The position numbers were made by a program, and so were the translations under genes. Below the pieces are notes generated by a model. The model had not been told where the DNA came from, did no database searches, and was given only the letters and a program-made list of their open reading frames with translations. This document shows positions 1 through 38,819 of a stretch of DNA of 64,000 nucleotides, in pieces. Origin of the DNA: a virus (lineage: Duplodnaviria > Caudoviricetes). Location: positions 1 to 64,000 of IMG/VR virus record IMGVR_UViG_3300029305_003800. One strand, 5' to 3'. Positions within the stretch are counted from its first letter, which is position 1. Each line of letters opens with the position of its first letter.

Positions 1-408
1 ACAGTAGAAAACATTTCAATTCACACAGATTTTGGTGCTATAGCAGTTGAAAGAGATATAACATATTCTGTATTAGAAAGAATGTTGGGAAAACAATATC
101 TTACAGAACAAGGTATTAGCAATATTAAGGCAGCAATAAATGCACAATTACAAAGATATAAAACAAATGGATATCTTAATGTAGGTGCACAATACAGTGG
201 AAATGATTTAACAATCACATATAACAATGTAAAATATAATGTTATCAAAAATGGTGCAGCACTTCCACAAGGATTTTATATTTTCTCAGTTCCAATGAAT
301 AATATATCTGTAGCAGACAAACAAGCAAGAAAATTTACACCTATATATGTAATTCTTGAGACACAAAATGGTGCAAGAGTTGTTGAAATCACAGGTGAAG
401 TAAGATAA
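1..408 (+). CDS. Tail sheath protein, C-terminal part (DUF3383-like), 5'-truncated by window edge
   Basis: Frame open from base 1. C-terminus GFYIFSVPM..ISVADKQARKFTPIYVILETQNGARVVEITGEV resembles DUF3383 sheath C-termini. Confidence 0.7.
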   Translation, partial: TVENISIHTDFGAIAVERDITYSVLERMLGKQYLTEQGISNIKAAINAQLQRYKTNGYLNVGAQYSGNDLTITYNNVKYNVIKNGAALPQGFYIFSVPMNNISVADKQARKFTPIYVILETQNGARVVEITGEVR

Positions 409-3778: not shown

Positions 3779-4369
3779 ATGATTAAAAATAATGTTTTTA
3801 GAGGAGTAGTTTACACATTCCTTACAGCAATGATGGTATATGCAGGAGTAGTAGGTATAGGCATGATGGGTGGTTCATTAGAAATGACTGCAGCAGAATT
3901 ATATACAACTCTTGGATACACAGGATTATTAGTTCTTGCAGGGATAGTATTCTTTGGCATAAATATGCTTATATTTGCAATTAATAACTATAAACAATTT
4001 GTGTATTATACTGCAGGAAAAGTAGATAATAGAAAATACGGCAAGAAAGTATTTGCGAAACTGTATAAAGCAGTTATAGCAATTCTATTGCTTGCAGGAA
4101 TTATTGTATTATTTACAATAAAGATTAATTTAATTGAATTTATAAGATTTGGTGATATAAAGACAGTTGTATTAGCAGGATTAACATTAATAGCAGTTGT
4201 ATTGTTATTTGCATTTGAATTTGCTGAGTTAATTTTTACAATTAAAGCAAGAGGTCCAAAGAAACCAAAGGCAAAGAAAGTTAAGAAAGCAAAGCAAGTA
4301 GAACAACCAGTTGCACCAAAAGCAACAGAAGTTCAAGAAAAACCAGTATTTAGATTTGGTAAGAAATAA
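3779..4369 (+). CDS. Integral membrane protein (about 4 TM helices)
   Basis: Four long hydrophobic segments and a Lys-rich C-tail; GGAGG RBS. Confidence 0.7.
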   Translation: MIKNNVFRGVVYTFLTAMMVYAGVVGIGMMGGSLEMTAAELYTTLGYTGLLVLAGIVFFGINMLIFAINNYKQFVYYTAGKVDNRKYGKKVFAKLYKAVIAILLLAGIIVLFTIKINLIEFIRFGDIKTVVLAGLTLIAVVLLFAFEFAELIFTIKARGPKKPKAKKVKKAKQVEQPVAPKATEVQEKPVFRFGKK

Positions 4370-5916: not shown

Positions 5917-5919
5917 ACT

Positions 5920-6531
5920 ATGAACATATTTGAAAGAAATAATAAACCTGCAATCAAACAAACAGTTAGAGATGCAGCAGAAGTAATAAATGAAGAAGTT
6001 GAACAAGTTGAGACTCCAGTTGAAGAACCAGTTGAGACCACTGAAAAGGTAGTTGAAACCAATGAACAAGAGATTATAACAGAACCTGTAGAAGAACAAA
6101 AGTTCCACAAATACAGAGTAAAATTCAATGGAAAGAAATACAGAGTTGTTGCTAAATCAGAAATTGAAGCATATGAAAAGATACAGAAGTTCTTTGAAAA
6201 TAAAATTATAGAACCTGCAAAAGAATTGAAAGAAGAAGATAAACAAATTATAATTAAAGTGAAAGATATCTTCAATGCTATAGCAGGAGAAATAACTCGC
6301 ATTGTAACAGTAGCACATCCAGAAACAGTAGATAACACATATGACAGATGGGTTGCAGTATTAACAGAAGAGTTAGGTGAAATCGTTCACGAAATAAATG
6401 ATGCATATGAGGGAAAACAACCTACAAAGAATACTTATGTAGAATGTGTTCAACTCGCAGCAGCAACAATACTACTTGCTAAAAAGTTCGCTAATGAGCA
6501 TCCGGAGATGTTTTCTGAGGAGGACAAGTAA
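5920..6531 (+). CDS. MazG-like NTP pyrophosphohydrolase domain protein with 24-aa tag
   Basis: WVAVLTEELGEIV...VECVQLAA matches the MazG-fold EExGE...ExxQ/D pattern; acidic N-terminus. Confidence 0.65.
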   Translation: MNIFERNNKPAIKQTVRDAAEVINEEVEQVETPVEEPVETTEKVVETNEQEIITEPVEEQKFHKYRVKFNGKKYRVVAKSEIEAYEKIQKFFENKIIEPAKELKEEDKQIIIKVKDIFNAIAGEITRIVTVAHPETVDNTYDRWVAVLTEELGEIVHEINDAYEGKQPTKNTYVECVQLAAATILLAKKFANEHPEMFSEEDK

Positions 6532-9474
6532 ATGTCATATATAGTAAAGACTAAGGGACGAAAATTCATAGTTGATGCAGACTCACACAAGGATGCTGTA
6601 AAGAAAGTAAGAGACAGTCTCTTGAAAGATGGCTATAGTTATGAAGACTTTGAGAAAGATCTTGAAAAGATGGGAATTAAAGGTCATACATCAACACTTT
6701 TTGCTGAGGCAAAGAGAGGACTCCCAAACTTAAAGAGAATAAAAGAACTCTCAGGAGGTTGGTGGAAGGATGTTGATGCTGAAAGGATTTACAAACTTGC
6801 AATGAATGTAAGAGACTCTGAATTATCTACAAACAAATATGAAAAAGAATTCGGACTTGTAGGAAGAACTCAAGACAAGTTAATTGAATCAGGCTCAGAG
6901 AAAGCATTACAAAAGAATATTGCAACTGAAATAAAAGCAGGAAAAGATCCAAAACAAGCAGCAGCAATAGCATACTCAATTCAAAGAGAGAATGATGGAA
7001 ATATAATTCCTAAAAATGCAAAAAAGATAGAATTTACATTCAAAAAAGATGGCGAGAAGTTAATTCTTGAAAATATGGGATACATGGGGTGGTCTAATAT
7101 AAATAAGAATGAAATATATCCAAATTCTTTGATAAATGACTATCTTAAATCAGGACTCGCAACTGTAAAAGTTATTGATTCAGCAATAAATGATGCAGAA
7201 ATACCTCATATAACAAAAGAACAATGGAATAAAATTCCAAAGGAATACAAAACAACAGATCCAAAAACAGGAAAGAAACAAGCATTTGCAGGAAGTTTGG
7301 GAATTGCTCCAGGTGGAACAACATTATTAACAGAAGGAATGCATTTTATAATTGACTCAGAAGAAAAGAATTATACTTATATAATGTTTGGAACTACAGG
7401 AGAAAAGAGAGTAGATAATCTTACAAAAGCAGAGGCAGAACATTTACTTAAGAATAATAAACTTTTAGGATATGATGGAAAAATAGTAGAAACAAAAACT
7501 CTAAAAGATGCAAAGCAAGAATATAGAGTAAATTATCACAATAGTTATACGGGAAGACATGCAGTAGATTATGTTGAAGCAAATAATGTAAAAGAAGCAT
7601 TAAGAAAGTTTGGAAGAGATGTAGCACTTAGAGGAGACGGAACAGCAAATATAAATGTTCATAGTATATCTCCTAATGAAGGATATCAAAGAATTTACGG
7701 AAAACTGAGCGAATTATTAAAGAATAAAGATTTTCAAGATTCTGTTGAAGATGATATCACCAACCAACAATATTTTACTGATAAAATTGAAAAAGCAAAA
7801 AATGTAGGAAAATTTACATTGTGGAAAGATGAAGAAGGAAACTATTATTTAGATGCAACAATTAGCAGAAGTGGAAAAAGACTTCAAAATCTCAAAACAA
7901 AAGACATAAATGAAGCAAGAAGAATTGCAAAAGAACATTTAGATTTTATTGAAGACTCAGCAATAGAAGATGAAACAAAAATAATAAATACAAAACTTTG
8001 GAATCCTGATTTTTACTTAGTTAAAGAACCAAATTTTAATGAAGTAAAAGAAGGAATAAGAAAAGTATTAAAGAACTCAGGACTTGAAGCAACATGGATA
8101 GAATTATCAGTATTTAATTCATATGTTACATTTAATCCTCGTGATAAAAGATTAGATAATGCTCCATTAAAGAAAGTTTTAAATGACCTACTAAAATATA
8201 TAAATAAAAATTTATATGTTGATAAATTAGTTTGTTCAGGTGGACAATTCAAATTTACAATAAAGGGATTTGAATATTTACTTAATAAATACAAAGTATT
8301 CAAAGATACTGCTGAAGAAATAGAAGATAAATCAGTATTCTCAGAAGAAACAATGAATTCTATGCAAGAAGGAATTGAAAAAGATTATGAGAGTATGGAA
8401 AATAGACTTGAAAAATTACATGATACATCTGCTCCAAAAGAAATAGAAGATTTACCTATTAAAGCAAGACAAGAGTTAAGAAATGCAAAAGAAAAAGGTC
8501 CAAAACTGTTAGAAATATTAAGTCAATTACAAGATATAGTAAATAAAGCATCTGCAGAAGAAAGGGCAGAAGTAAGATATAAGGCAGAAAAGATATTAGC
8601 AGATCTCAAAAAGCAGTTTGGATTAGAAAGAGAAACATACATTAAGTTAGATTCTGCAATTGAAGATGAAAGATTATCTCCAATGACTTATTCTAAATTA
8701 AAAGAGTTAGGATACGATCAAGATGATTGGAAAGATTTAACACAAGAACAAGCAAATGAATTAGTTGCAAAAGGTAGAAAAGAAACTACAAATGGAGAAA
8801 CTTCTAATGAAGAGAATTCTACAATAGAAACTAAATCTACGAATAAAAATATAGAGAAATATGAAGTTCCTGAAGAGTATGATGCAAGTAAATGGACAGA
8901 AACAGAAGAATATACTAAATTTATGAAAGAACAGTTCAAAACAGGAGATCCAAAAGTATCTGAATATGGAATTGAATTCAAAGGTAATTTTTCTAAAGAA
9001 GATTTAGATAAAGTAAGAAATTATTTTGATGGAGAAGGATTAGATATACTTGAAACCAAAAACGGAATCATGTTATCTCAAGGTGCAGATTATGTAGATG
9101 ATCAAGAAGAGTATGAAGAATTTGCAAAACAAAGAGAAGAATGGTTAAATCAAGAAAATAAACCAAAAATTGAAAATAATCCTGAAAATAGAGGAAGATG
9201 GTTGGAGTTAATTAAAAAGCAGTTTGACAAAGGAGAATTATCTGAAGAAGAGCGAAAAGAATTAGAAGAATTAGATGCAGTGATAAATCCACCAAAAACT
9301 GAAGAACAAAAAGAAAGGGATAAAGAGAAAACAAAACTCAATACTGAGTTAGAAACTCTTAAATCTGAGTTGAAACCAAATAATAGATATTATTGGAAGA
9401 AAAGTGAGATAAAAGAAAAAGAAGATAGAATTGCAGAATTAGAAAGAAAAATTGCAGAACTTGAATCTAAATAA
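6532..9474 (+). CDS. Large modular putative internal head polyprotein (980 aa)
   Basis: N-terminal tag; repeated DSAIED-like linkers; contains the small phage head-region domain [28 protein letters not shown]. Confidence 0.6.
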
Positions 9475-26410: not shown

Positions 26411-26806
26411 ATGTCAATATTATATGAAGCAACTAGTCCTAGAGCAGATCATGGAATTTGGGTTCTTACTTATGGACAACCTAGTAAAACTCCTTTTAAC
26501 TTTGATTGGAAAGGAAAAACTAGAGGAGGAGAACTAATAAATTTTGTTATAGGAACAAATTGTAATGTAATTTTTAATATAAAAGAATACATGAATGAAG
26601 ATCCTATAATATCAAAGAAAATACAAATGGGAGAAAATAATACAGTAATGTTAGAATTAACTTATGAAGATATGATGTTATTAAAGATGGAAAATAAATA
26701 TCATCTCACAGCAACTTTATATGACGATAGTGATAAGTTGATAAGAATATTACTCAGAGATCTTCCTATAAAAATCTTAGAAAGTGGGGTAGAAAACAAT
26801 GGATAA
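26411..26806 (+). CDS. Baseplate/fibre adaptor (BppU-like, tentative)
   Basis: 131 aa beta-rich ORF preceding the large fibre. Confidence 0.45.
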   Translation: MSILYEATSPRADHGIWVLTYGQPSKTPFNFDWKGKTRGGELINFVIGTNCNVIFNIKEYMNEDPIISKKIQMGENNTVMLELTYEDMMLLKMENKYHLTATLYDDSDKLIRILLRDLPIKILESGVENNG

Positions 26807-29792
26807 TACAATAAGTATAAATACAAGTGTTACTGTTGACAGTTATCAAGTAATTGATGACTTGAATATTGTAGATGAGGCAGTTCAAGTTAATATTGTA
26901 GATGCATTATTCACATCTACTCAACCTGATTGGAATATTGACGATCCTGATAGTCCTTATTACATAAAACACAAACCAACAAAGACAAGTGATTTTATAA
27001 ATGATGGTGCTAATGGCACAAGTAGATATGTAGAAGAAAGTGAATTAACAGACTTAAATAAAGTAAATGATGTTCAGATAAAGACAGTTGGAAGTTATGC
27101 ATCAGTTGTTATTGATAAAATAGCAAAAATAGATTTATCAAATTATGTCACAAAAGAATTTAAGACAGGATCAAGTTCTGTCTATAAAGTCTTAAGTGAT
27201 AATAATTTTACAGACGCAGAAAAGACTTTAATTAGTTATTTAAGAACAAATGGTGACGGATCTCAAGCATTAACAAATAATGGAACATATAAAGATTTAT
27301 ATAATATCTTAACAGTAAATGGAGTGGCTCCTGTAGATAAAAATGTTCAAATAAATACAGAGAACATTTATTATGGAGCAGATCCTCTTAAAACTCTGTT
27401 AGATAAGGTTGTAACATTTAATTCAATTGCAGATAAATCCATAATTCTTGATAATAATAAATTTATATTTGGTAAAAATACAACAAACACTTCTATTCAA
27501 TTATTAGGAGTAAATTCAAGCAATTCTATTATACTTGGTGATAATTCTTCATTATTAAATATATTATCTAGTGGCAGAATTACAGTAAATTCAAGTAATT
27601 CAATAGCATATTTAACAGATATAGTAAATTCTATTAGCGAGCATAATTCAAGTAATTTAGCACATTCAGATATAAGAGAAGAAATAGCAAATGTTGAATC
27701 ACATATGGTCATTAGAATGACTAATGCAGAGATGACAAATGTAATATCAGAAGATTCTCTTGAAAATAATTCAATTGTGACTCCAACAGATACAGGAACC
27801 TATACTCCTGGAAAGTTATATAGATATTATAATCAAGCATTTACATTATTGAGCAATTATCAAGTTGAAAACTTATATAGAACAAGTGCTCCAACATCTG
27901 CTACAGCAGGAGTCGCAGGACAAATCTGTTTTGATGTTATTAACTTAAAGATTTGGAGATGCACAAATTCAACTGCACCATACAATTGGACAGATATAAC
28001 TCCTGTAAGTTCTGGTGATTCTCAACTATTACAACAAGTTATAAATAATACACAAATAATATCAGACGCAAATGGTGGATTTACAGCAGGAAATAATTAT
28101 TTATTACTTGATTCAAATGGCATAATTCCTATTGAAAGAATTCCACAAGCAGTTTTACAAGGAATGACTTATGGTGGTTCATTTGATGGAAATGGTATAA
28201 TTACAGCAAGTTCAAGTGCTCAAGCAATTGATGGTCAAGTAATTGACACAATAAATAAAGCATACTATAAGAATTATTATTTCTTGGCGACAGCAACTTA
28301 TGTGCTAGATGGTGTAACCTATATTGCAGGAAACTTTGCATTATCAAGTGGAACAGAATGGGTAAAAATTGCAAACTCAGGACAAGTTGTGTCAGTAAAC
28401 GGATATGATGGAGTAGTAGTTTTAACTTATACAGATGTTAATGCAATAGGAGATGATAAACTAGTTACAAGTTGGAGTTCTACAACAAGTAATGATAATG
28501 TTCCTAGTGAAAAACTTGTAAAAGATTCATTAGATGGTAAACAAGATACATTGACTACAGCACAACAAAATGCAGTAGATAGTGGAATAACAAGTTCACT
28601 TGTAACTCAGATTGGAACAAACCAAACAAGCATTTCAAATATAAATGCACTTATCCCATCTCAAGCGACAGATCAAAATCAACTTGCAGATAAAGATTTT
28701 GTAAATAGTTCAATAAACGCACTTGCTGCATTCTATATTACTAGAAATGTTGCAGGAGATCCATTTAGAACAAAAGCAGAATTAGATGGAACTTCAACAT
28801 ATTATTCTGGTGGTCAAGTAAGAATTCCTACAACAAACGATTACTGTATTGTTTTAGCAGATATAACAAAAGCAACAGCAGTATCTGGATATAGTTCATT
28901 TACAACTACATCTCAATATGTTGGATATCATATAATCTATAATTATATAGATACACTTGTAACAGATACCAATAAAGATAGTTTGAGTATAGTTCCTGGA
29001 ACAACAGTATGCTATTATAAGATACCTACAACAAGATATAGTTATCAAGGTTCTCAATGGGAATTCCAGTATATTGTTAATGATACATCATTAACTGCTG
29101 CGCAACTTGCTGCATTGAATAGTGGAATCACAACATCTCTTGTTGCTCAAATAACTGCAAATGCAAATAATATAAGTGCATTACAACAAGGAACTGTAAC
29201 AAATGTAAGTTATAATACATCTACAAAAACATTACAAAAGACAGTAAATTCACAAGCAATTGATATAATTGCAATTTACAATACAACTACAGCAGGAAGT
29301 GAAAGTGTTACAATAAATACAAATACATTAAATGTAATGACAAGGGACACACAGCAAACTGTAAGTGGTAGAAAAAGTTTTAACAGTGTAGATAAAATAC
29401 TTCCTACAACAACTGCAACATATGATATAGGATCTTCTTCAAACTTCTGGAGAACATTATATTTATCTGGAAATTTATCAGACGGCACAAACTCTATAAG
29501 TATTTCAGGAATTATAAATAAAGCAAACAAAACTTCTGTAGCAGAATACACACTATATGCAGCAAGTTGGGTTGGAAATAATTATACTCTCGGTGTAACA
29601 GGAAAATCTTCAAGTAATAATGCTCTTGTAAGTAACAGTAATTCAGGAACAGATCAACAAGTTTTAGATAATGCAGAAGCAATAACTGATGCAAATATTT
29701 ACAAAATAGTTGATAATGGAAACTCTCTAACATTTACTTGTGAGACAGTTCCTACAGTTGATTTGAAGATTCAAGTGGAGGTGTATGACTAA
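26799..29792 (+). CDS. Large tail fibre protein (997 aa)
   Basis: QPDWN..YIKHKP, LSDNNFTDAEK, HN....AH.DIR, VVSVNGYDGVV.L fibre modules. Confidence 0.75.
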   Translation: MDNTISINTSVTVDSYQVIDDLNIVDEAVQVNIVDALFTSTQPDWNIDDPDSPYYIKHKPTKTSDFINDGANGTSRYVEESELTDLNKVNDVQIKTVGSYASVVIDKIAKIDLSNYVTKEFKTGSSSVYKVLSDNNFTDAEKTLISYLRTNGDGSQALTNNGTYKDLYNILTVNGVAPVDKNVQINTENIYYGADPLKTLLDKVVTFNSIADKSIILDNNKFIFGKNTTNTSIQLLGVNSSNSIILGDNSSLLNILSSGRITVNSSNSIAYLTDIVNSISEHNSSNLAHSDIREEIANVESHMVIRMTNAEMTNVISEDSLENNSIVTPTDTGTYTPGKLYRYYNQAFTLLSNYQVENLYRTSAPTSATAGVAGQICFDVINLKIWRCTNSTAPYNWTDITPVSSGDSQLLQQVINNTQIISDANGGFTAGNNYLLLDSNGIIPIERIPQAVLQGMTYGGSFDGNGIITASSSAQAIDGQVIDTINKAYYKNYYFLATATYVLDGVTYIAGNFALSSGTEWVKIANSGQVVSVNGYDGVVVLTYTDVNAIGDDKLVTSWSSTTSNDNVPSEKLVKDSLDGKQDTLTTAQQNAVDSGITSSLVTQIGTNQTSISNINALIPSQATDQNQLADKDFVNSSINALAAFYITRNVAGDPFRTKAELDGTSTYYSGGQVRIPTTNDYCIVLADITKATAVSGYSSFTTTSQYVGYHIIYNYIDTLVTDTNKDSLSIVPGTTVCYYKIPTTRYSYQGSQWEFQYIVNDTSLTAAQLAALNSGITTSLVAQITANANNISALQQGTVTNVSYNTSTKTLQKTVNSQAIDIIAIYNTTTAGSESVTINTNTLNVMTRDTQQTVSGRKSFNSVDKILPTTTATYDIGSSSNFWRTLYLSGNLSDGTNSISISGIINKANKTSVAEYTLYAASWVGNNYTLGVTGKSSSNNALVSNSNSGTDQQVLDNAEAITDANIYKIVDNGNSLTFTCETVPTVDLKIQVEVYD

Positions 29793-31170
29793 TGGCAGTA
29801 ACAAACTTTTTAGGGAGTGGTGGAGTAAATCTCTCTGCCACTCAAGCATTAGTTGATAGATTAGAAGAGGCAGTCGGAGTTTATCCATTACTAAATTATA
29901 GTGTTGTAAATACTCTATCTAATTGCTCAACGGATAATGATGCATCTACTGTTCAAGAAAACAGTTCTTATACTGCAAATATAACTGCAGGATCTGGATG
30001 GACATTAGAAGGAGCAAGTGTTTTAATAACTATGGGAGGAGTAGATATAACTTCTACAGCATATTCTAGTGGAACAATATCTATAGCAAGTGTAACAGGA
30101 GATCTGGCAATTACAGTAAGTGCAGTAGCAAGTGGAAGTCCTATTTATGGAGTAAGTTGGACAAATGACACTACAACTACAATGACTAGAACAGATGATT
30201 CAATAGGAAAAACTTTTGCAATAAATAGTTCTACTGGTGCTATATCAAGTGATTTTAATAGTGTATTCCCATGGAATGAAACAGAAATTGTTACAGATAA
30301 TTCTGGAAATAAATTATTACACTTCCCTGATATGTATTTCAGAATTGGTAAAGACGCAAATGGAGACATCAATTCAGTTGCTGTGAGTAAGACACAAGGC
30401 AGTGAAGGTAATTGGTATAAATGTGATGCATTTGACTATGGTATATATGGTGGTTCATTAAATGGAACAAAATTAGAAAGTAAAACAGGACAAACAAGAT
30501 TAGGTTCTGCAACTCGTGCTCAATTTAGAACATACGCAGGAAATAACAGTGAAACTGGTTATACCTATCATCAATTAGACTTAAAACACAAAATTGTCAC
30601 AATGTTCTTATGGTGGATAGAATGGGCAACAAAAGACAGTTCTACAATTATGACAGGACACATCTCAGGAAGTCCATCATCAAGTGGAGTTAAGTAGCAA
30701 CTGGTGGAACAGATTCAGTTACAACTCCATCTGGATATAATACTTCTACTTGGCAGATGAGATACCATTATATTGAAGATTTTATAGGAAATCAGTTAGA
30801 GTTTATAGATGGCATTTATGCAGGAACAACAAGTGTAGCAGACTATGTAACAGATAATCCTGCTTACTTCAGTGACTCAACTACAAATATGACTCAATTA
30901 TCTTGGGTAGATCCTGCATCTAACTGCATTAAGGCATTTGGTATGGATGATAATAAACCATTCTTAGTTATGCCTACTAAGACTACAGGTGCAACAGATT
31001 ACACTCAAGCATTCTGTGATAGAATTTATAATACTACTTCAAATTATCCCGTTGTCTACTCTGGTGCTTCCTACGGCTATGCCAATGCTAGCTTTGGTCT
31101 GTCTGCCTTCAATCGTAGCGCTGTGTTTTCCTCCTCTGGCATCCTTGGTGGTCGCCTTTTAAGACAGTAG
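29792..31170 (+). pseudogene. DGR1 target (Ig-like + CLec/FGE-like receptor-binding protein), split by a 1-nt frameshift at about 30694
   Basis: ORF 29792-30697 stops at TAG. The -1 frame (GTA at 30694: VATGGTDSVTTPSG..MRYHYIEDFIGNQLEFIDG) continues to the VR and stop at 31170. Confidence 0.75.
31049..31155 (+). repeat. DGR1 variable repeat (VR1)
   Basis: 107-bp ungapped match to 31260-31366; 19 mismatches, 17 opposite TR adenines. Confidence 0.95.
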
Positions 31171-31176
31171 GAGGTG

Positions 31177-31195
31177 ACGGAGGATGTGCCTCCGT
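31177..31195 (+). other. DGR1 target-recognition hairpin
   Basis: acggagg-atgtg-cctccgt, GC-rich stem just downstream of VR1. Confidence 0.75.
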
Positions 31196-31259
31196 GGAAT
31201 TATAACAAATAATTCTGAAAAGCACATAAATTAAATATAGGGTTCTGATTCCTTGATCA

Positions 31260-31366
31260 CCGTTGTCTACTCTGGTGCTAACTACAACAATGCCAATGCT
31301 AACAATGGTCTGTCTTACTTCAATCGTAACAATGTGTCTAACTCCTATGACATCATTGGTGGTCGC
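31260..31366 (+). repeat. DGR1 template repeat (TR1)
   Basis: AAC/AAT-rich copy of VR1, upstream of RT1; 27 adenines. Confidence 0.95.
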
Positions 31367-31533
31367 AATTTTATAAAATTATTATCTATTTTAGGAATCA
31401 GTTATCCTTACCACTTGGTAGAAAATATCATCTTGGCATTTAATAGTTTAGTAGGTATTTACTCGGAAGACTACGCTAAGAATAAAAAGATAATAGCACT
31501 TAAATGTGAACAAATATAAAAGGAGAATTAGTT

Positions 31534-32583
31534 TTGAAGAGAGTTGGGAATCTTTATGAAAAGATTTATGAAATGAGCAACTTAGAAAGAGCATTAAAGA
31601 ATGCTGCAAGAAACAAGAAGAATAGATCTGGAGTCAAAAAGATTCTCAACAATCCAAAACAATTCTTACTAATTCTTCAAGACATGTTAATAAATGAAAC
31701 ATATAATTTACATCCAGCATATGAAAAGAAGATAAGAGAATACACAAAAGAAAGACAAATAAAAATTCCAAAATTCTTCCCTGATCAAATTATTCATTGG
31801 GCAATAAGTTTAGTTGTTGAAAAGTATATAAACAAGGGTATGTATAAATATTGTTGTGGCAGTGTGAAGGGAAGAGGAATTCATTACTGTAAAAGTTATA
31901 TAGATTCATTTTATCGCAAGAAAGGAAGAAGAAAATATCTATTAAAGATAGATATCAGAAAGTTTTATCAACATGTAGATCATGAAAAATTAAAAGAAAA
32001 ATTCAGAAGAAAATTCAAAGATAAGAAATTATTAAGACTACTTGATTCAATAATTGATAATGGAGGAGAAGGAATTCCTATTGGATTTTATACTAGTCAG
32101 TGGTTCTCAAACTTTTACTTAGAACAATTAGATCATTTTATTAAAGAAATTCTTCATGTGAAGTATTATGCAAGATATGTAGATGATATGGTTCTTATAG
32201 ATTATAACAAAAGAAAACTACATAGAGCAAGATTACAAATAGAAGAAATGTTAAATATTCTTAATTGTTCTATGGAGCATAAGTGGCAGTTATGGAGAAT
32301 GCATAGTAGACCATTAGATTTTGTTGGGTATAAGTTTTATCCTAATAAAACATTATTACGAAAGAAAATATTCATAAAATTAAATAGAATTGCAAGAAGA
32401 ATGAAAGATAAATTGTGTTTAAAGAGATGTAGAATATTCTTATCTCTATATGGTTGGTTCTCACACTTAAAGTCTTGTGTTCATTATTACAATTCATACA
32501 TAATAAAATATGTCTCTATAAGACAAATGAAAAGATTAATATCTAAAAGTCAGTTATTATTAAATAGGAGTATAAGAGTATGA
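31534..32583 (+). CDS. DGR reverse transcriptase 1
   Basis: TTG start with AAAGGAG; KER.I, D.I.H, GRG.H, LKIDIRKFY, GIPIGFYTSQWFSN, YARYVDD, DFVGY. Confidence 0.95.
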   Translation: MKRVGNLYEKIYEMSNLERALKNAARNKKNRSGVKKILNNPKQFLLILQDMLINETYNLHPAYEKKIREYTKERQIKIPKFFPDQIIHWAISLVVEKYINKGMYKYCCGSVKGRGIHYCKSYIDSFYRKKGRRKYLLKIDIRKFYQHVDHEKLKEKFRRKFKDKKLLRLLDSIIDNGGEGIPIGFYTSQWFSNFYLEQLDHFIKEILHVKYYARYVDDMVLIDYNKRKLHRARLQIEEMLNILNCSMEHKWQLWRMHSRPLDFVGYKFYPNKTLLRKKIFIKLNRIARRMKDKLCLKRCRIFLSLYGWFSHLKSCVHYYNSYIIKYVSIRQMKRLISKSQLLLNRSIRV

Positions 32584-32840
32584 TTTATAAAGACAAAACA
32601 AATCCAGATATTGAAAGAATGAAACAACAGTTAAATCTTACAGGAGATGTCTATATTTACAACGAACATTTCATTGAAAGTTTAGAGAGTCATAAGAATT
32701 TGATTCATGATTCTATTGCGTTGACTATTGAACAAGCATATGAAGAAAGAGTTCAATGGGAACAAGAACAAGCAGAGAAACGAAGAATTGAAATGGAAAA
32801 ATATAGGGCAGAACATCCTGAAGAGTTTGAGGAGGAATAA
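32580..32840 (+). CDS. Hypothetical protein coupled to the RT1 stop
   Basis: ATGA overlap; AGGAG RBS. Confidence 0.6.
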   Translation: MIYKDKTNPDIERMKQQLNLTGDVYIYNEHFIESLESHKNLIHDSIALTIEQAYEERVQWEQEQAEKRRIEMEKYRAEHPEEFEEE

Positions 32841-32843
32841 TCT

Positions 32844-33371
32844 ATGTCAAAGATAAACGACTTAAATACAGAATTAGAAGAATATGTAGAAGATGCAGAG
32901 GCAATAAAGACTAAAATACAAACTGTAGCAACTGCAAAAGACATTTCAATTACAAGAGGGACAGATACACCATCTTATGTGTTGGATAAAATAAATGCAG
33001 GGACAGTAAAAACTCCATCTGGAACAAAAAATATAGATTCAAATGGAATTACAGATGTATCTTTATTTCAATATGCAGATGTAAATGTTTCTCCTAATGT
33101 AAGTGAGAAGACAATAACTAATAACGGAACATATTTGGCAAGTGATGAAAATGTAGATGGATTTAGTAAAGTTGTTGTAGATGTTCAAGGTGGTGGAGCA
33201 GAACCTGTGCAAAGATATTTAGTTGTTCAAAACGCAGATGGAAGTATAGATATAACTACAACATCTTCAATGAATCCTGCAACTTATTATCAAGCAGAAG
33301 GATCTGCATTACAAACTGAATCACAAGCAATAAAATTAGATCAATATTTTACAATACCTAGGGTGTCATAA
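32844..33371 (+). CDS. Tail fibre-associated structural protein
   Basis: PSGT..I.SNG..DV..Y..ADVNV and KTITNNGTY..DGFSKV.VDV fibre repeats. Confidence 0.6.
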   Translation: MSKINDLNTELEEYVEDAEAIKTKIQTVATAKDISITRGTDTPSYVLDKINAGTVKTPSGTKNIDSNGITDVSLFQYADVNVSPNVSEKTITNNGTYLASDENVDGFSKVVVDVQGGGAEPVQRYLVVQNADGSIDITTTSSMNPATYYQAEGSALQTESQAIKLDQYFTIPRVS

Positions 33372-33387
33372 AAGGAGGAATTAAAAT

Positions 33388-34809
33388 ATGGCAATAGATA
33401 CAAGTAAGACAGTTACAGCAATAAGAATTGATGGTGTAAATTTACCATTAGCAACAGCAGGAGTTACAGTAACAAGTTCAACAAATACTGGATATGTGAT
33501 AGTTGTAGCAGACATAGGTGGCACAACAATAACTACAAGAGATTCTAATTCAACAGTTATAGATACATATACGACTCCAACAGGAGGAGGTTCAAAGACA
33601 ATCTCTGTTAGTGCTACAGGAACATATACCGTCACAGCAGAAAGAGGTGGTTCTACAGTGTGGAATACAACAGTTACAATCACAGGAATAGGAGCAGTTT
33701 GTGCAAAAGTTCCATTAACAGATTATACTGCAGCAGAAATACATGAAGCATGTCAAGCAGGAATATTCAGTATTATGTTTGATATTAAAAATGAGTGGAA
33801 ATTTGTTCAAACAGGAAGTATATTTAATAATGCTATATTCTTAGTTGAGAAAATAGAAACAATAAATGGCAAAAATATAGTTCAATTTAGAAAGAAATTC
33901 CCTTATTCTTCAACTTACATGTGGGATCCTTATTTCACTTATCTATCAAGTGCTACAGCATCTTCATTTAGTTCGACATATTCATCTGCTGGTGGTTATA
34001 AGTATTCAGATTTAAGACAAAAATTTATGAAACAAGGTGATGCTGTTTATATTCAAGCAACAGGTATTAAACCAACAGGAAGTTCTATTTCAACAGGAAT
34101 TGAATTTGATAAAATATACTATACAGATGGAAATGGAACTACAAGTGGTGTATATACCTATAATCCATCTTCAGATACATTCACACAAGATACAGAAATG
34201 ACATATTTTGCAAGTCAAAGTGCTGCACAATCTGGAGTAAAATTCTTAAAAGGATACTTCAAATCAGTAGGATCAGGAATAGGACAAGCAACTTTTGATG
34301 CAGGATATTATTATACTAGATCTACAGTATCACAAGGATATGTGTATACAAGAGCAACAACCTACAATGCTTCTACAACTTATTATGGATTTTATGAGAC
34401 ACTTCAAGAAGATGGTATATTCTATGGAGCATTTAGTTCAATTCAAACATATATGGTCAAATTTAGTGATTATTCAAGCACAGGATTGAATCAAACAACT
34501 TATTTATCATTGACTGAAGATTATACTGATATTAACTGCGTAGAAGAATTTACTGGATTAAATAGAACATCTGTATTAAAGAGTGGAACGGGTGCAACCA
34601 CAATGAATTATTATAACATCGCAGGTGAGGGTGGCAAATATCCTGCTTATGAAAGTATATATGATATCTTCATGGGTCAAGATGAATGGACTCGTTCAGT
34701 TTACTCCACTAGCACTACCAGTGCTTGCTATCTTTACTATATTGGTTCTGTCATTACCAGTGTTGTCAACAGTAGTTATCGTGTTCGTCCAGGCTTTAGA
34801 ATTGCCTAA
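33388..34809 (+). CDS. DGR2 target receptor-binding protein (CLec-fold C-terminus)
   Basis: C-terminal WTRS....A.Y.....G.....VRPGFRI encodes VR2. Confidence 0.9.
   Translation: MAIDTSKTVTAIRIDGVNLPLATAGVTVTSSTNTGYVIVVADIGGTTITTRDSNSTVIDTYTTPTGGGSKTISVSATGTYTVTAERGGSTVWNTTVTITGIGAVCAKVPLTDYTAAEIHEACQAGIFSIMFDIKNEWKFVQTGSIFNNAIFLVEKIETINGKNIVQFRKKFPYSSTYMWDPYFTYLSSATASSFSSTYSSAGGYKYSDLRQKFMKQGDAVYIQATGIKPTGSSISTGIEFDKIYYTDGNGTTSGVYTYNPSSDTFTQDTEMTYFASQSAAQSGVKFLKGYFKSVGSGIGQATFDAGYYYTRSTVSQGYVYTRATTYNASTTYYGFYETLQEDGIFYGAFSSIQTYMVKFSDYSSTGLNQTTYLSLTEDYTDINCVEEFTGLNRTSVLKSGTGATTMNYYNIAGEGGKYPAYESIYDIFMGQDEWTRSVYSTSTTSACYLYYIGSVITSVVNSSYRVRPGFRIA
34692..34797 (+). repeat. DGR2 variable repeat (VR2)
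   Basis: 106-bp ungapped match to 35509-35614; 17 mismatches, all opposite TR adenines. Confidence 0.97.
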
Positions 34810-34813
34810 AACC

Positions 34814-34853
34814 TTATTCCTATTGCACTTACGAAAGTATAGTGCAGGAATAA
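34814..34853 (+). other. DGR2 target-recognition hairpin
   Basis: ttattcc..tgcact-tac-GAAA-gta-t-agtgca-ggaataa downstream of VR2. Confidence 0.75.
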
Positions 34854-34923
34854 AAATCTTATGAATTTGAGAAACTTTTATAAGAATTCCTGTATAATAA
34901 GATATAGGAGGACGAAAGGGAGG

Positions 34924-35472
34924 ATGTCAAATGTAATAAAAGCAAAGAGAACATTGAGTTCAGCACAATTCTTACAAACATCAAGAGAATTAGTAAAGGT
35001 ATCCATAACGAGATATAACAAGTGTTCCAAAAGAATGAAAGATTATATGCTGCAAACATTTATAATTCCTGTTACAAAACTTTACATGGATGTATTTTAT
35101 GTGAAGAAATTATATTCTAAGTTTGATGTAAATTGTATCTTAAGAGTGAAACTATGTGAAAAGATCTTAGCAAGACTTGAATATTTGTCTAGTATGCTAG
35201 ATCTATACAAAGTATTTGATCAAGCATCTCTTGAAATAACAGATAAACAATGGGATGAATGGCAAAATCTTATAAATGAAGATATGATGTATATATCAGG
35301 ACTAAAGAAGAAAGAATTAACTAATTTTAGAGAAAAACATTTTAATCCTCTGGATTTTAGTGATGAAAATGCTGCAGCAAAACTTCAAAAACTTGAAAAA
35401 CAGTTAGGAATATCTATGTTTGAAGAAGATTTAATTGCGGAATTAAATTTAGCAAATGATGAAATAATGTAG
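34924..35472 (+). CDS. avd: DGR accessory variability determinant (Avd-like)
   Basis: MSNVIKAKRTLSSAQF N-terminus; basic helical protein between target and TR; GGAGG upstream of ATG 34924. Confidence 0.75.
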   Translation: MSNVIKAKRTLSSAQFLQTSRELVKVSITRYNKCSKRMKDYMLQTFIIPVTKLYMDVFYVKKLYSKFDVNCILRVKLCEKILARLEYLSSMLDLYKVFDQASLEITDKQWDEWQNLINEDMMYISGLKKKELTNFREKHFNPLDFSDENAAAKLQKLEKQLGISMFEEDLIAELNLANDEIM

Positions 35473-35508
35473 ATTTATATAAAAGTCGTTCATGGGTGTG
35501 AACTATTG

Positions 35509-35614
35509 TCGTTCAGTTAACTCCAATAACACTAACAATGCTTGCTATCTTAACAATAATGGTAATGTCAATAACAATAATGTCAACAATAGTTATCGTG
35601 TTCGTCCAGGATTT
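35509..35614 (+). repeat. DGR2 template repeat (TR2)
   Basis: 15 AAy codons, 37 adenines; between avd and RT2. Confidence 0.97.
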
Positions 35615-35766
35615 GAAGACACTATGCATTAAGAAGTAGTATGAAATAGGACAAAAACAGTGCGTCTTCAAAGGAGTTCACTCCCGTCTGCTTAGCAGAG
35701 AAACAGATATAGATGCAGTAGGGCAATAGACTACCAGACTGCTGTAAACTATTGGAGATTTATACT

Positions 35767-36822
35767 ATGACTTGTAATACTCTTGAAGAATTATTCTCAT
35801 TTACACATGTTTATAATAGTGCAAAGAGATGCACACATCAAGTTAGATGGAAAACAAGCACACAAAACTTCGAGGCATTGATGATGTCTAATGTGTGTCA
35901 ACTAAGAAGAGATGTTATAAGTGAAACATATAAAAGTAGTGGATTTCATAGATTTGTAATCAGAGAAAGAGGAAAAGTCCGCAAAATAATGTCAGTTCAT
36001 ATTACAGAAAGGACAGTTCAAAAGACTCTATGTGATTACTACTTAATTCCTAAAATAACTCCAAAATTGATTTACGATAATGGAGCATGTCTTAAAAGAA
36101 AGGGAACTAGTTTTGCTATTAAAAGATTAAGAAAGCATTTGCACAAGTATTATCTTGAAAATGGCAGTGATGGTTATATATTACAATTTGATATAAAAGA
36201 TTTCTTCAATTCTATAAATCATAAATTATTGATAGATAAGATGAGAAAGATAATAGAAGATGATAAAATCTTCAAATTATATAGTTATTTTGTAAATTGT
36301 TTTGATGGAGATACTGGAATAGGATTAGGGAGTCAAATATCACAAGTAAGTGCCTCATTTTATCTAAATGAATTAGATCATTTAATAAAAGATAAATTAG
36401 GATTTAAGTATTATGGAAGATATATGGATGACGGTTATATTATTTGCAATTCAAAAGAACAATTAAAGGAATGCCTAAGAGAAATAAAAGAATTATTTGA
36501 AAAACTAAAACTAACATTAAATCCAAAGAAAACACTAATTATAAGTCTTAAACATGGATTTACTTACATGAAAAGAAGATTTAATCTAAAAGAAGATGGA
36601 TATATTTCTATGAAACCATATAAGAAAAACATTTTAAGATATAAAAGAAAATATAAGAAATTGATGTTAAAGAATGTAGAAGATAAAGTTCTCGCAGATT
36701 TAAGACAGACATTCAAAGGATATCTCAAAGAATTTAATTATGTTGATAGATATACAAGGAGGATAGAAAAAGATGTATCAATTAAGGAGAGACATAGAGA
36801 ATTTAGCAGACAGAACTGTTAA
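35767..36822 (+). CDS. DGR reverse transcriptase 2
   Basis: ERGKVR.I, ERTVQK, NGACL.RKG, LQFDIKDFF, GIGLGSQISQ, YGRYMDD, LNPKKT. Start 35767 (or TTG 35752). Confidence 0.95.
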   Translation: MTCNTLEELFSFTHVYNSAKRCTHQVRWKTSTQNFEALMMSNVCQLRRDVISETYKSSGFHRFVIRERGKVRKIMSVHITERTVQKTLCDYYLIPKITPKLIYDNGACLKRKGTSFAIKRLRKHLHKYYLENGSDGYILQFDIKDFFNSINHKLLIDKMRKIIEDDKIFKLYSYFVNCFDGDTGIGLGSQISQVSASFYLNELDHLIKDKLGFKYYGRYMDDGYIICNSKEQLKECLREIKELFEKLKLTLNPKKTLIISLKHGFTYMKRRFNLKEDGYISMKPYKKNILRYKRKYKKLMLKNVEDKVLADLRQTFKGYLKEFNYVDRYTRRIEKDVSIKERHREFSRQNC

Positions 36823-36997
36823 TGAAAACATTTTTGTAAAAGACAGAACAGTTTATATTGAAGACAAGTTCAAATATCATGATGATAATTGGTATGAAAA
36901 TGCAGATGGAAACTGGATAAACTTACAAGGTGGAATACCAGATTACAGAGTAGAAACAAATTTAGATCCAGATATATTTGTGGAAGAAAATAAATAA
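36773..36997 (+). CDS. Hypothetical protein overlapping the RT2 3' end
   Basis: AAGGAGG RBS before ATG 36773. Confidence 0.55.
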   Translation: MYQLRRDIENLADRTVNENIFVKDRTVYIEDKFKYHDDNWYENADGNWINLQGGIPDYRVETNLDPDIFVEENK

Positions 36998-37031
36998 TCA
37001 CAAATTGAGTTATATTAATTAGGAGGACAAA

Positions 37032-37766
37032 ATGGAGGATAAATTAAAAGATATTAAAATAAATTCTTCTAATGTAACAATTCAAAATAAGCAGACTACA
37101 ACAGGACCTATTGCAGTGAAAGAAGATGATAAAAATGTCAATAATGCAGTTAATGACATCATTATTCAAAATGCTAGACAATCAACAGATGTTAAAAATG
37201 TTATTGATCTTGCTGCAACAAGTAAGGCATTACAAAATGAAAAGACTGTAGATAAAATTGTTAAAGAGAAGACAGACGAACTTATTACAGATGCAGAAAA
37301 GAAAAAGATTGAAGCAGAAACTGAGAAAATTCGTCAAGAGGCAGAAAAAGTAAAGCAGGAGAAAGAAAAAGAGATTGCTGCTCTGGAAAAGATTAAAAGT
37401 AAACTTGAAGGAGAAGTAGCAAATCTTAAGGCAGAAGATGACAAAGCAAATGCATTCTTTGAAGCAAATAAATCTATTCTTAAATGTGTAGGTGTAAGAG
37501 AAAAACTATCTCTAAAAGCGATGCAATGGCTAATGGTTCCTGCAGGAATAGTGTTTACAATATTCCAAATCTTACTATTACCATTTTCTTTGATAGGATT
37601 TGCAATTGAATCATTAATGACAATAGTTACAGCAGTCTGTGGTAAAATCGCAAAAGGTGGATGGAAGATTGCTATGTCTATTCTAGTTACAGTTGTAATA
37701 GTTGCAATGCTAGCAGGAATATACTATCTTGTTGTCCATTATTCTGGAGTAATATTTAATAATTAG
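37032..37766 (+). CDS. Coiled-coil membrane protein (possible lysis function)
   Basis: Coiled coil plus 2-3 C-terminal TM segments. Confidence 0.6.
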   Translation: MEDKLKDIKINSSNVTIQNKQTTTGPIAVKEDDKNVNNAVNDIIIQNARQSTDVKNVIDLAATSKALQNEKTVDKIVKEKTDELITDAEKKKIEAETEKIRQEAEKVKQEKEKEIAALEKIKSKLEGEVANLKAEDDKANAFFEANKSILKCVGVREKLSLKAMQWLMVPAGIVFTIFQILLLPFSLIGFAIESLMTIVTAVCGKIAKGGWKIAMSILVTVVIVAMLAGIYYLVVHYSGVIFNN

Positions 37767-37776
37767 GAGATAAGTT

Positions 37777-38193
37777 ATGGAAATTAAAGAGAAAATAGAA
37801 TACTACTTAAATCAAAATAAATTAGTAGAAGAAACTAAAACAAAATTGATTGATGCACATATTGAACAAATCAATAAAGTTATTGAAGATAAAATTCTTG
37901 CATTGCGAAATGAATTAAGAGAAAGTGCTATAAATGAAGTGTGTGGCGAAGAATATAATGTTCTTAATAAAGAAATTGAAAAGAACAATAGACATATAGC
38001 AATTCTTACTGAAATAGAAGAGGAAACTGATTTTATTGATGTCTTAAAAGAAATTATTCCTGTTACCACTGAGAATGGCTCTGAAATGGCTGAAGATAAA
38101 TTGCCAGAGGATTTACCAAAAGATAATACAATCACAGAAGAAACAGTTACAGAAAACACTAATAAAGATAATTTAGATGGAATGTTAAATTAA
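37777..38193 (+). CDS. Hypothetical coiled-coil protein
   Basis: ORF with AGGAG RBS. Confidence 0.6.
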   Translation: MEIKEKIEYYLNQNKLVEETKTKLIDAHIEQINKVIEDKILALRNELRESAINEVCGEEYNVLNKEIEKNNRHIAILTEIEEETDFIDVLKEIIPVTTENGSEMAEDKLPEDLPKDNTITEETVTENTNKDNLDGMLN

Positions 38194-38207
38194 GGAGAAT
38201 ATAGATT

Positions 38208-38819
38208 ATGGAGTTTACAGAATTATTTAGAAACTTTGGAAGTCTATTTGAGACATTTCAATGGTGGTCATTATTATTGATTGTAGGAGTTGTTATTGTG
38301 ATGGTTCCTATAAACATTTTACTAAAGAAAATAATGAAAGATGAAAAGATTGCAAGATTAAGAAAAATTACAGCATTTATATCTGTGTATCTTGTATCAA
38401 TAGCAGTTGTCGCTTTATTTACAGCAATAGCAACTAGCACAGCAATTACAGCAACTTACTTATTTGGTGCAGCACTTGCTTTAGGATTTTGTTCACAGTT
38501 TGTATGGGAAATTGTTAAAATCATTAGAGACTACGGATTTAAGAAATTTATTGTTTGGTTAAGTAGAAAAATTAATGAAGAAAAACTCATTAAAAAAATT
38601 GCAACAAAATACAGTATAGACGAAAAACTTGTCAAAGGACTAGTTGCTGAAGCAAAGAATCAAATAAAAGATATTGATACATCTGAAATAGATAGAGTAT
38701 TCAAAGAAGATACAGAGTTTATGACAAGTATAAAACAAAGACTTGAAAGTGTTGTATACGCAGAAAACTTAAATGAAGCATTAAATGAAGTAATAACTAT
38801 TGTTAAAGAATATAAATAA
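38208..38819 (+). CDS. Holin-like membrane protein (3 TM)
   Basis: Three hydrophobic helices and a charged C-terminus; last gene of the late block. Confidence 0.5.
   Translation: MEFTELFRNFGSLFETFQWWSLLLIVGVVIVMVPINILLKKIMKDEKIARLRKITAFISVYLVSIAVVALFTAIATSTAITATYLFGAALALGFCSQFVWEIVKIIRDYGFKKFIVWLSRKINEEKLIKKIATKYSIDEKLVKGLVAEAKNQIKDIDTSEIDRVFKEDTEFMTSIKQRLESVVYAENLNEALNEVITIVKEYK

Follow-up and report, generated by a model that had tools for sequence, protein, structure and literature searches.

The window analysed here is a 64,000-nucleotide stretch of a closed phage record of 99,786 bp, which has a 155-bp terminal overlap and is rated 100% complete by CheckV. The phage comes from the cattle gut; it is myovirus-like, has a genome of ~100 kb and is apparently lytic. 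Its distal tail-fibre module carries two diversity-generating retroelements (DGRs) side by side, termed DGR1 and DGR2, each with a target gene, a variable repeat (VR), a template repeat (TR) and a reverse transcriptase (RT). Both target genes sit downstream of the baseplate wedge, DUF2612 and S74-chaperone fibre genes. Neither a third RT nor a further VR was found in the whole 99,786-bp genome, and the window contains no tRNA genes. The features of the region are as follows.

26799..29792, + strand: 997-aa distal tail protein, encoded downstream of baseplate and tail-fibre genes; conserved anchor on the left side of the variable RBP region
29792..30697, + strand: target 1, N-terminal part; 301 codons, stop TAG
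30691..30693 (within 30691-30697), + strand: frameshift site of target 1; 1-base deletion, TTAAG here and TTAAAG elsewhere
30694..31170, + strand: target 1, C-terminal part; -1 frame, C-type-lectin/FGE-like domain, ending in GGRLLRQ
31049..31157, + strand: VR1, pairing with TR1
31177..31195, + strand: hairpin 3' of VR1; 7-bp stem, 5-nt loop, z -3.1; kept in L079
31260..31368, + strand: TR1; 29 adenines over the full repeat
31409..31489, + strand: RT-18-like structured RNA in the TR1-RT1 spacer; 29.9 bits against RF03021
31534..32583, + strand: RT1, DGR-type RT of an Avd-less lineage; IGFYTSQ and YVDD
32580..32840, + strand: 86-aa acidic protein (P0005); found after the RT in L026-L031
32844..33371, + strand: 175-aa protein upstream of target 2; 95% conserved in L079
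33388..34809, + strand: target 2, 473 aa, putative DUF6273-type variable protein; intact
34692..34797, + strand: VR2, pairing with TR2
34814..34853, + strand: hairpin 3' of VR2; GAAA loop, z -3.9
34924..35472, + strand: Avd-family accessory protein, 182 aa; four-helix bundle with a ~45-aa C-terminal extension
35509..35614, + strand: TR2; 37 adenines; identical in another strain
35615..35751, + strand: TR2-RT2 spacer; blocks conserved in L038-L040
35752..36822, + strand: RT2, DGR-type RT of an Avd-associated lineage; LGSQISQ and YMDD
36773..36997, + strand: 74-aa ORF, conserved 3' of RT2-type RTs (L039, L076, L080)
37032..38819, + strand: conserved gene trio (244, 138 and 203 aa); right anchor of the variable region

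Homologues of the 997-aa protein occupy the same position in related phages of ~100 kb. Promoter and terminator scans of the region performed no better than shuffled sequences, and no convincing recombination sites or repeats were detected on the flanks of the cassettes.

Components of the two cassettes

Both VR/TR pairs are adenine-specific. Over the full repeat, VR1 and TR1 differ at 21 positions, 19 of which are TR adenines (hypergeometric p ~4e-12), leaving two non-adenine mismatches in the VR1 of the window. Within the bounds chosen in an earlier sequence-only reading, the count is 17 of 19, as given there. For VR2 and TR2, all mismatches fall on TR adenines (17/17; p ~8e-10), again as first described, and the adenine totals of that reading (27 for TR1 within its bounds, 37 for TR2) were reproduced. 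In other strains, TR1 has two additional adenines, at 31346 and 31353. The adenines of both TRs occupy codon positions 1 and 2, in AAY codons, where no substitution yields a stop codon. The repeats share GC-rich ends, GGTGGTCGC and CGTGTTCGTCCAGG, which are putative homing elements, and the hairpin proposed 3' of each VR was recovered in both cases.

The two RTs both carry the DGR motif xGxxxSQ, in the form [ILV]GxxxSQ together with YxDD; the YVDD of RT1 and the YMDD of RT2 had been read correctly. They match phrog_1423 at 5.5e-96 (RT1) and 1.7e-80 (RT2), and for both the best solved match is the bRT of phage BPP-1 (8ub7_A), with E-values of 1.4e-24 and 5e-15 for the two proteins. As regards a grouping of RT1 with non-DGR RTs, raised earlier as a possible objection, the best solved match of RT1 is a DGR enzyme, which speaks against it. 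With these repeats and RTs, the claim of two genuine DGRs holds.

The further claim that both are complete fails, since this genome has a frameshift in target 1. Its N-terminal part is homologous to the N-terminal part of single-ORF targets in the loci L022, L026-L031 and L001, and all target 1 homologues consist of one open frame. Contigs X1, X3 and X8, from three other studies, have one more A at 30691, which yields a 459-aa gene, and comparison of L066 with the window finds target 1 intact there too. An exact look-up of the truncated 301-aa product matched no record, and run X14, the apparent source sample, provided no contig over 30691. The frameshift allele may be an assembly error of one base; if the 1-base deletion is real, the gene into which DGR1 currently writes is broken. 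As the two parts lie in different frames, stop-codon recoding is not needed to account for the split. An intact target gene is lacking for DGR1 in this assembly only, and DGR2 has one.

Structural modelling of the intact 459-aa protein (from L066) predicts a C-type-lectin/FGE-like fold whose C-terminal surface is formed by the VR. The best match is TaqVP (5vf4; E 2e-6, probability 1.0), followed by PvdO, FGE and Mtd. In this model, pLDDT is mostly 75-97 in the CLec domain and lower over the VR tip; an N-terminal region of ~115 residues is modelled with low confidence. Position in the tail-fibre module, together with the folds, makes it plausible that both targets are receptor-binding adhesins.

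Between TR1 and RT1, the RT-18-like RNA scores below the gathering score of RF03021 (29.9 as against 41.3 bits), and an RT-18 RNA lies at the equivalent position in 9/9 RT1-relative loci tested, at 48-69 bits. The small acidic protein P0005 follows a target-1-like gene without RT in L080, and survives the RT1 deletion in L079; by its distribution, it travels with target-1-type genes and not with the RT. The 175-aa protein upstream of target 2 has a homologue in L080 that appears fused to the N-terminus of a target-2-like gene.

Target 2 shares 32-42% identity with the targets of L038-L040; PF19789 (DUF6273) is matched by two of the latter, at 1.6e-14 and 3.6e-11. In bits, the family model gives 54.6, 43.6 and 24.3 for L038, L040 and L039, and 15.4 (E 0.017) for target 2 of the window; the cut-off is 23.5. 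For avd, the start lies at 34924 rather than at 34861. Sequence and profile searches with Avd against PDB and Pfam gave chance helical matches only, Foldseek alone returned nothing for the model at E <= 0.001, and a word-index search returned the query itself. Its identity rests on hhalign, fold comparison and the Pfam matches of family members: the window family aligns with the Avd of Roseburia phage Shimadzu at 94.9% probability (hhalign), superposition of the model on bAvd 4dwl_D gives an rmsd of 2.0 across 107/107 residues (Z 13.6; Z 14.0 for 8ub8_D), and members of the family match PF22296 and PF05635.

Assembly, natural activity and turnover

Tandem cassettes may arise from an assembly chimera or a recent duplication, and several samples do have contigs that break at VR1 and VR2; in a few contigs of low depth, the conserved motifs of the two RTs are joined to each other. 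The dual cassette is not chimeric, since contigs assembled independently in other studies contain both elements: a 10.8-kb contig from another study covers 29500-37000, a 50-kb contig covers 29500-34701, L067 covers the interval from the RT1 end to the RT2 start, and every junction is bridged by others, including the interval of 32.6-33.4 kb for which a chimera had been raised as a possibility. The source record itself is closed and complete. The RTs are only 29% identical (over 209 residues), and no similarity is detectable between targets 1 and 2. Either explanation is thus scarcely credible, and the earlier view that the tandem is not a recent duplication stands.

Both VRs, when examined for variation as had been suggested, vary between samples at template-adenine sites. 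This comparison was made between samples, from contigs. Of the 22 sites at which VR1 differs, 20 correspond to TR1 adenines; for VR2, pairwise comparison of three strains gives 18-22 differing sites, of which 16-21 are at TR2 adenines. TR2 is identical in the strain where it is comparable, TR1 differs at two sites, and the DNA flanking the VRs differs by ~1% between samples. In L066, 23/23 mismatches between TR1 and VR1 are at adenines. Variation of the VRs almost exclusively at TR adenines, with near-constant TRs, indicates that both elements have recently been active in natural populations.

The relatives place this activity in a wider context. Among those with the same tail module, the site has no RT or one RT, and two RTs occur only in this lineage; the single-RT relatives L076 and L080 are confirmed as DGR2-type. 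Single whole cassettes of either type are present in other phages. The tail-fibre site is a hot spot for gain and loss of DGR cassettes, and the distribution supports separate gain or loss of the two, in keeping with the independent acquisition proposed at the outset. In the near relative L079, TR1 and codons 1-260 of RT1 are deleted, and VR1, now frozen, shows 6-7 mismatches at positions other than adenines; from this deletion, DGR1 may be leaving this lineage. L080 has a target-1-like gene and no RT1. By megablast, the dual-DGR region had no counterpart among 50,697 phage records, and in IMG/VR neither the 997-aa protein nor the portal protein, used as queries, retrieved any relative. In INPHARED, 121 RT1-like and 131 RT2-like phage records were found, every one matched at a single place. 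Among 65 IMG/VR relatives, one (L055) has two avd-RT pairs; a second TR/VR pair was not found within that locus.

It could be argued from these data that DGR2 alone matters, with DGR1 a decaying passenger whose target is truly broken and the dual state a short-lived stage of cassette turnover. The split target 1, the remnants in L079 and L080, and the presence of DGR2-type cassettes in more of the relatives examined are all compatible with such decay. However, an intact 459-aa target 1 accompanies intact TR1 and RT1 in three samples from three studies, the exact look-up found the frameshift allele in no other record and it may be an error, the mismatches in L066 are without exception at adenines, and the strain differences in VR1, almost all at adenine sites, point to recent activity. 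This reading is considered rather unlikely.

Relationship between the two elements

On the evidence above, the locus very probably holds two separate DGRs from distant lineages, placed together in the distal tail-fibre module and recently active; we infer that they are also independent. RT1 and RT2 fall into two deep clades of a FastTree tree, and an HMM of the Avd family has matches in 0/37 RT1-type loci, in 26/28 RT2-type loci and, within this genome, in a single gene. That gene lies between target and TR in DGR2 only, DGR1 having none. With RTs in two deep clades, targets without detectable similarity and different accessory equipment, DGR1 and DGR2 represent deeply separated lineages and are not copies of recent origin.

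DGR1 is made up of target 1, VR1, the hairpin, TR1, the RT-18-like RNA and RT1; as an element of an Avd-less lineage, it rewrites 17 codons of a tip with C-type-lectin fold (~1e16 proteins). DGR2, comprising target 2, VR2, the hairpin, Avd, TR2, the spacer and RT2, is a canonical Avd-type element and rewrites ~19 codons of a putative DUF6273-type tip (~1e20 proteins). In both cases, the RT would copy the TR RNA of its element and make errors at adenines, after which the cDNA would replace the VR of that element.

Coupling into one composite system, in which the Avd of DGR2 also serves DGR1 or the two RTs cross-prime, is suggested by the fact that DGR1 lacks an Avd while the only Avd-family gene of the genome lies 2.3 kb downstream of RT1, in an adjacent cassette on the same strand. 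Against this, none of the 37 RT1-type loci has this Avd family and such cassettes stand alone in other phages; RT1 relatives carry the RT-18 RNA instead, and Avd-less DGR lineages have been described (Wu et al. 2018, PMC5758913). The 3' ends of TR1 and TR2 and their spacers are, moreover, unrelated. Coupling is accordingly judged highly improbable. Since TR 3' ends, flanking RNAs and helper equipment all differ, the two DGRs are most likely independent, and may be orthogonal.

A more far-reaching reading is that an Avd-independent, RT-18-RNA-type DGR and an Avd-dependent DGR are both active in one virus without cross-talk. As an orthogonal pair occurring in nature, they would generate combinations of two diversified tail-tip proteins (~1e36). 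The locus would in addition be a plug-in hot spot that gains and loses whole DGR-plus-target cassettes, with both routes of decay caught in the act: a target frameshift here, and a TR/RT deletion in the sibling. As a whole, this reading is put forward tentatively, its chances being somewhat short of even.

Comparison with known DGR systems

DGRs are, to our knowledge, the sole natural system by which prokaryotes and their viruses hypermutate proteins in a targeted way, and are under development as tools for directed evolution. Two mechanistically different DGRs only 4 kb apart constitute a natural test of orthogonality, and raise the question of which RNA features and helper proteins bind an RT to its own template. 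Within this one hot spot of the tail-fibre region, the cassettes behave like accessory modules, with partial-loss intermediates in existence, and the frameshift in target 1 illustrates that seemingly complete cassettes need checking against population data. The dual DGR is a rare arrangement of a well-known system; as the known DGR mechanism is unchanged by the findings, their value is moderate.

DGR2 agrees part for part with the DGR of Bordetella phage BPP-1 (mtd-VR, avd, TR, brt), in the order target with 3' VR, hairpin, Avd-fold helper, TR, spacer and RT, and mutagenesis is adenine-specific in both. The present system differs in the second, unrelated cassette 2 kb upstream, in a target of probable DUF6273 type instead of Mtd, in the extra ~45-aa C-terminal extension of Avd, and in the ~100-kb, myovirus-like phage. 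Roseburia phage Shimadzu, with tail fibre (DUF6273), Avd, RT and small ORF, has the layout of DGR2, and its RT is 39% identical to RT2; the family of its target homologue is annotated as tail fibre. Shimadzu and related DGRs with DUF6273 targets belong to gut phages of Bacillota. In contrast to the phage described here, Shimadzu is a 45-kb temperate phage with a single cassette, and the target proteins are not alignable pairwise.

DGR1 may be likened to the Avd-less DGRs of Lineage 3 (Wu et al. 2018, PMC5758913), given its lack of Avd and its compact layout of target, TR and RT; with the RTs of Lactobacillus phage LBR48 and of crAss-like phages, RT1 shares 38-43% identity. Its target shares with TaqVP, of the Thermus aquaticus DGR (PDB 5vf4), the C-type-lectin/FGE-like fold and a C-terminal VR, at 13% identity, and differs in its additional N-terminal region of ~115 residues.

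Several DGRs per genome have been reported for ~10% of DGR-bearing complete genomes (PMC5758913) and for 25% of Bacteroides isolates (10.1101/2024.11.15.621889), and the Zeta crAss-like phage Lera has several TR-VR pairs on one RT (PMC12386605). These cases concern separate mobile elements of a cell, near-identical copies, or one common RT, whereas the phage described here has RTs from two distant lineages in a single viral genome, at a distance of 4 kb.

Two repeat pairs and two reverse transcriptases

Two direct-repeat pairs are prominent within 29–38 kb of the window, each made up of a template repeat (TR) and the variable repeat (VR) rewritten from it:

VR1, 31049–31157, pairs with TR1
TR1, 31260–31368, 21 mismatches to VR1, of which 19 at TR adenines (hypergeometric p ~4e-12)
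VR2, 34692–34797, pairs with TR2
TR2, 35509–35614, 17 mismatches to VR2, 17/17 at adenines (hypergeometric p ~8e-10)

The adenine bias on which the sequence-only reading had built its case is thereby confirmed for both pairs. The adenines of both templates lie at codon positions 1 and 2, chiefly in AAY codons, and a stop codon is unreachable by any substitution at them. The computed repertoires amount to ~9e15 proteins for VR1 and ~1e20 for VR2. No further VR for TR1 or TR2 was found anywhere in the whole genome, which contains only two reverse transcriptase (RT) genes. At 31346 and 31353, TR1 has T in the window and A in strains X1, X3 and X8, which are the same phage in contigs of three other studies; the TR1 template itself is therefore polymorphic, with two extra mutable positions in these strains.

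RT1 (349 aa) carries the motifs IGFYTSQ and YVDD, and RT2 (356 aa) LGSQISQ and YMDD. Both match the phage RT family phrog_1423 (5.5e-96 and 1.7e-80). Among solved structures, each matches RT 8ub7_A of the Bordetella phage DGR best (1.4e-24 and 5e-15), with group II intron, retron and DRT enzymes scoring behind it; a grouping of RT1 with non-DGR RTs is thus not borne out. The two RTs are 29% identical across 209 residues. They fall into two deeply separated clades of a 60-RT tree, which comprises IMG/VR relatives, Lactobacillus phage LBR48, Roseburia phage Shimadzu and BPP-1, all without non-DGR outgroups; with midpoint rooting, bRT groups on the RT2 side. Similarity between target 1 and target 2 is undetectable, and the earlier view that this is not a recent duplication holds. 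A few low-depth metagenome contigs fuse conserved motifs of RT1 and RT2 (window 32012–32536 to 36357–36634). These may reflect recombination between the two RTs; most likely, they derive from other organisms' RT genes or are artefacts of assembly.

Continuity of the assembly and variation between strains

The window takes up the initial 64 kb of a source record with 99,786 bp and 30% G+C; ~90% of the record's coding sequence is on one strand, and its CheckV completeness is 100%. A 155-bp terminal overlap (window 1–155 = genome 99632–99786) indicates a closed genome, circularly permuted or terminally redundant. Portal, prohead protease, major head protein and baseplate wedge protein are encoded; genes upstream of the DGR region include one for a DUF2612 protein and one for a fibre carrying an S74 chaperone domain. 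Metagenomes of cattle gut and faeces contain the phage in 13 studies.

The sequence-only reading would have been refuted by a chimeric assembly across 32.6–33.4 kb. The region 29500–37000 is covered in one piece by a 10.8-kb contig of another study, a 50-kb contig covers 29500–34701, and L067 runs from the last part of RT1 through to where RT2 begins. Given these bridging contigs, the tandem arrangement is not a chimera.

Natural variation was assessed from contigs, by comparison between samples. VR1 differs between the window and X1 at 22 sites, 20 of them at TR1 adenines; the remaining two restore the TR base, and within the X1 strain all TR1/VR1 mismatches (23/23) are at adenines. Among three strains, VR2 shows 18–22 pairwise differences, 16–21 at TR2 adenines. 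TR2 is identical between the strains compared while VR2 varies, and the remaining 3.3 kb differs by ~1%. As expected by the sequence-only reading, both VRs vary nearly always at template adenines, and these between-sample differences show that both elements have been active recently. In several samples contigs end at VR1 and at VR2, which may reflect mixed VR variants.

Targets and accessory components

Target 1 is split in the window:

N-terminal part, 29792–30697, ORF ending in stop TAG
C-terminal lectin domain, from 30694, −1 frame

Both parts share one frame in every homologous locus, and the X1, X3 and X8 contigs have one additional A behind 30691, with the gene called as 459 aa; the window thus has a 1-base deletion. 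This may be an assembly error or a true null allele; the run that resembles the source sample yielded no contig across this position, and a look-up found the truncated product absent from all other records. The claim of two complete DGRs in tandem therefore stands as to two real DGRs, and fails in that the assembly carries target 1 with a frameshift. Modelled with 21 homologues, intact target 1 has the DGR variable protein TaqVP (5vf4, E 2e-6) as its top match, followed by PvdO, formylglycine-generating enzymes and Mtd. Target 2 is 32–42% identical to the targets of L038–L040 (RT2-type relatives), which match DUF6273; its own DUF6273 match is below threshold.

In DGR2, the cassette with RT2, a genuine Avd (the DGR helper protein) is encoded between target 2 and TR2, as shown by profile, fold model and family Pfam matches. 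Profile comparison with hhalign aligns this Avd full-length to the one annotated in Roseburia phage Shimadzu (94.9%, E 4e-8). The predicted structure (pLDDT 71.7) has four long helices and a C-terminal extension; superposition gives Z 14.8 with 2rld, an IVP-family protein, Z 14.0 with the bAvd chain of a DGR ribonucleoprotein (8ub8_D) and Z 13.6 with 4dwl_D (rmsd 2.0, 107/107 residues), matches that count only alongside other evidence because helical bundles generally score high. The family has 594 representatives, mostly of ~135 aa; among 73 scanned members, PF22296 (bAvd) occurs in 3 and PF05635 in 4. The start of avd is at 34924 instead of 34861; one base at 34918 is missing in other strains, where the gene encodes 182 aa.

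On this genome the Avd-family HMM finds one gene, and it matches 26 of 28 RT2-type loci versus 0 of 37 RT1-type loci; Avd-less DGR lineages have been described previously (Wu et al. 2018, PMC5758913). DGR1, the cassette with RT1, instead has an Rfam RT-18 match of 29.9 bits, below threshold, directly upstream of RT1; RT-18 is above threshold at the equivalent position in 9/9 RT1 relatives tested. The TR2–RT2 spacer (35615–35751) is without an Rfam match. It shares conserved blocks with L038–L040 (GAAGGAGTG...CCC, ACCA, GCTATAAAC), which suggests a possible structured RNA different from RT-18.

Related phages and known systems

Homologues of the 997-aa protein encoded just ahead of the DGR region are found on contigs that share its tail-module gene order, and several of these contigs are ~97–102 kb long. 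Their variable content sits between this protein and a conserved gene trio (244, 138 and 203 aa).

Content of the variable site in related contigs
L075, L077, L078: other fibre-like genes, without RT
L076, L080: one DGR2-type cassette, one VR/TR pair each
L080: additional target-1-like gene, then an 86-aa acidic gene, without RT1
ENA contig: one RT gene, with a 138-aa gene before it
L079 (~90–95% identical DNA): intact 459-aa target 1; TR1, RT-18 region and RT1 codons 1–260 deleted (~1040 nt)

VR1 of L079 is frozen, with 6–7 non-adenine mismatches to TR1. The deletion lies at L079:14356–14540 (Logan SRR23253229 contig, matching window 26.3–34.7 kb), and this sibling phage still has both the hairpin after VR1 and the 86-aa gene. 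The content of L079 and L080 implies that the 86-aa gene after RT1 accompanies the target rather than the RT. L080:9940–14292 holds three candidate fibre-tip genes alongside a single RT and a single detectable VR/TR pair. The three encode a 388-aa target-1-like protein, a DUF6273 protein of 301 aa and a 597-aa protein, apparently a fusion of an N-terminus like P0006 (the 175-aa protein upstream of target 2) with a target-2-like body. At L076:15093–16135 the RT alignment is split into two segments that lie in different frames, which points to either a broken gene or a sequencing error. L076 is an NCBI contig (GCA_036649855.1) binned in a Bacilli MAG, a weak hint of Bacilli as host.

The relatives compared at this site carry zero or one RT; within this set, only the lineage of the window itself shows the dual-DGR state. 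Single whole cassettes of DGR1 type and of DGR2 type exist in other phages, and the cassettes act as accessory modules, each of which can be acquired or lost without the other. INPHARED records have a single RT place in 121/121 cases with RT1-like matches and in 131/131 with RT2-like matches. The search for dual cassettes in related phages yielded two avd–RT pairs in 1 of 65 IMG/VR relatives, L055 (IMGVR_UViG_3300031555_002205, 62 kb), in tandem at 4400–9056 and with RTs of different sub-clades. Within the 14.6 kb examined it has one VR/TR pair only (4148–4277 / 4934–5063); for the second avd–RT pair, the target may be far away or absent.

The dual-DGR finding is real and well supported, the target 1 frameshift being the single error of detail. 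Orthogonality and combinatorial host recognition of the two DGRs are reasonable inferences. The literature searches turned up multi-DGR cellular genomes (PMC5758913; 10.1101/2024.11.15.621889) and multi-TR phages (PMC12386605), and no account of a phage carrying two complete DGRs from different lineages. The mechanism is the known DGR mechanism, present twice.
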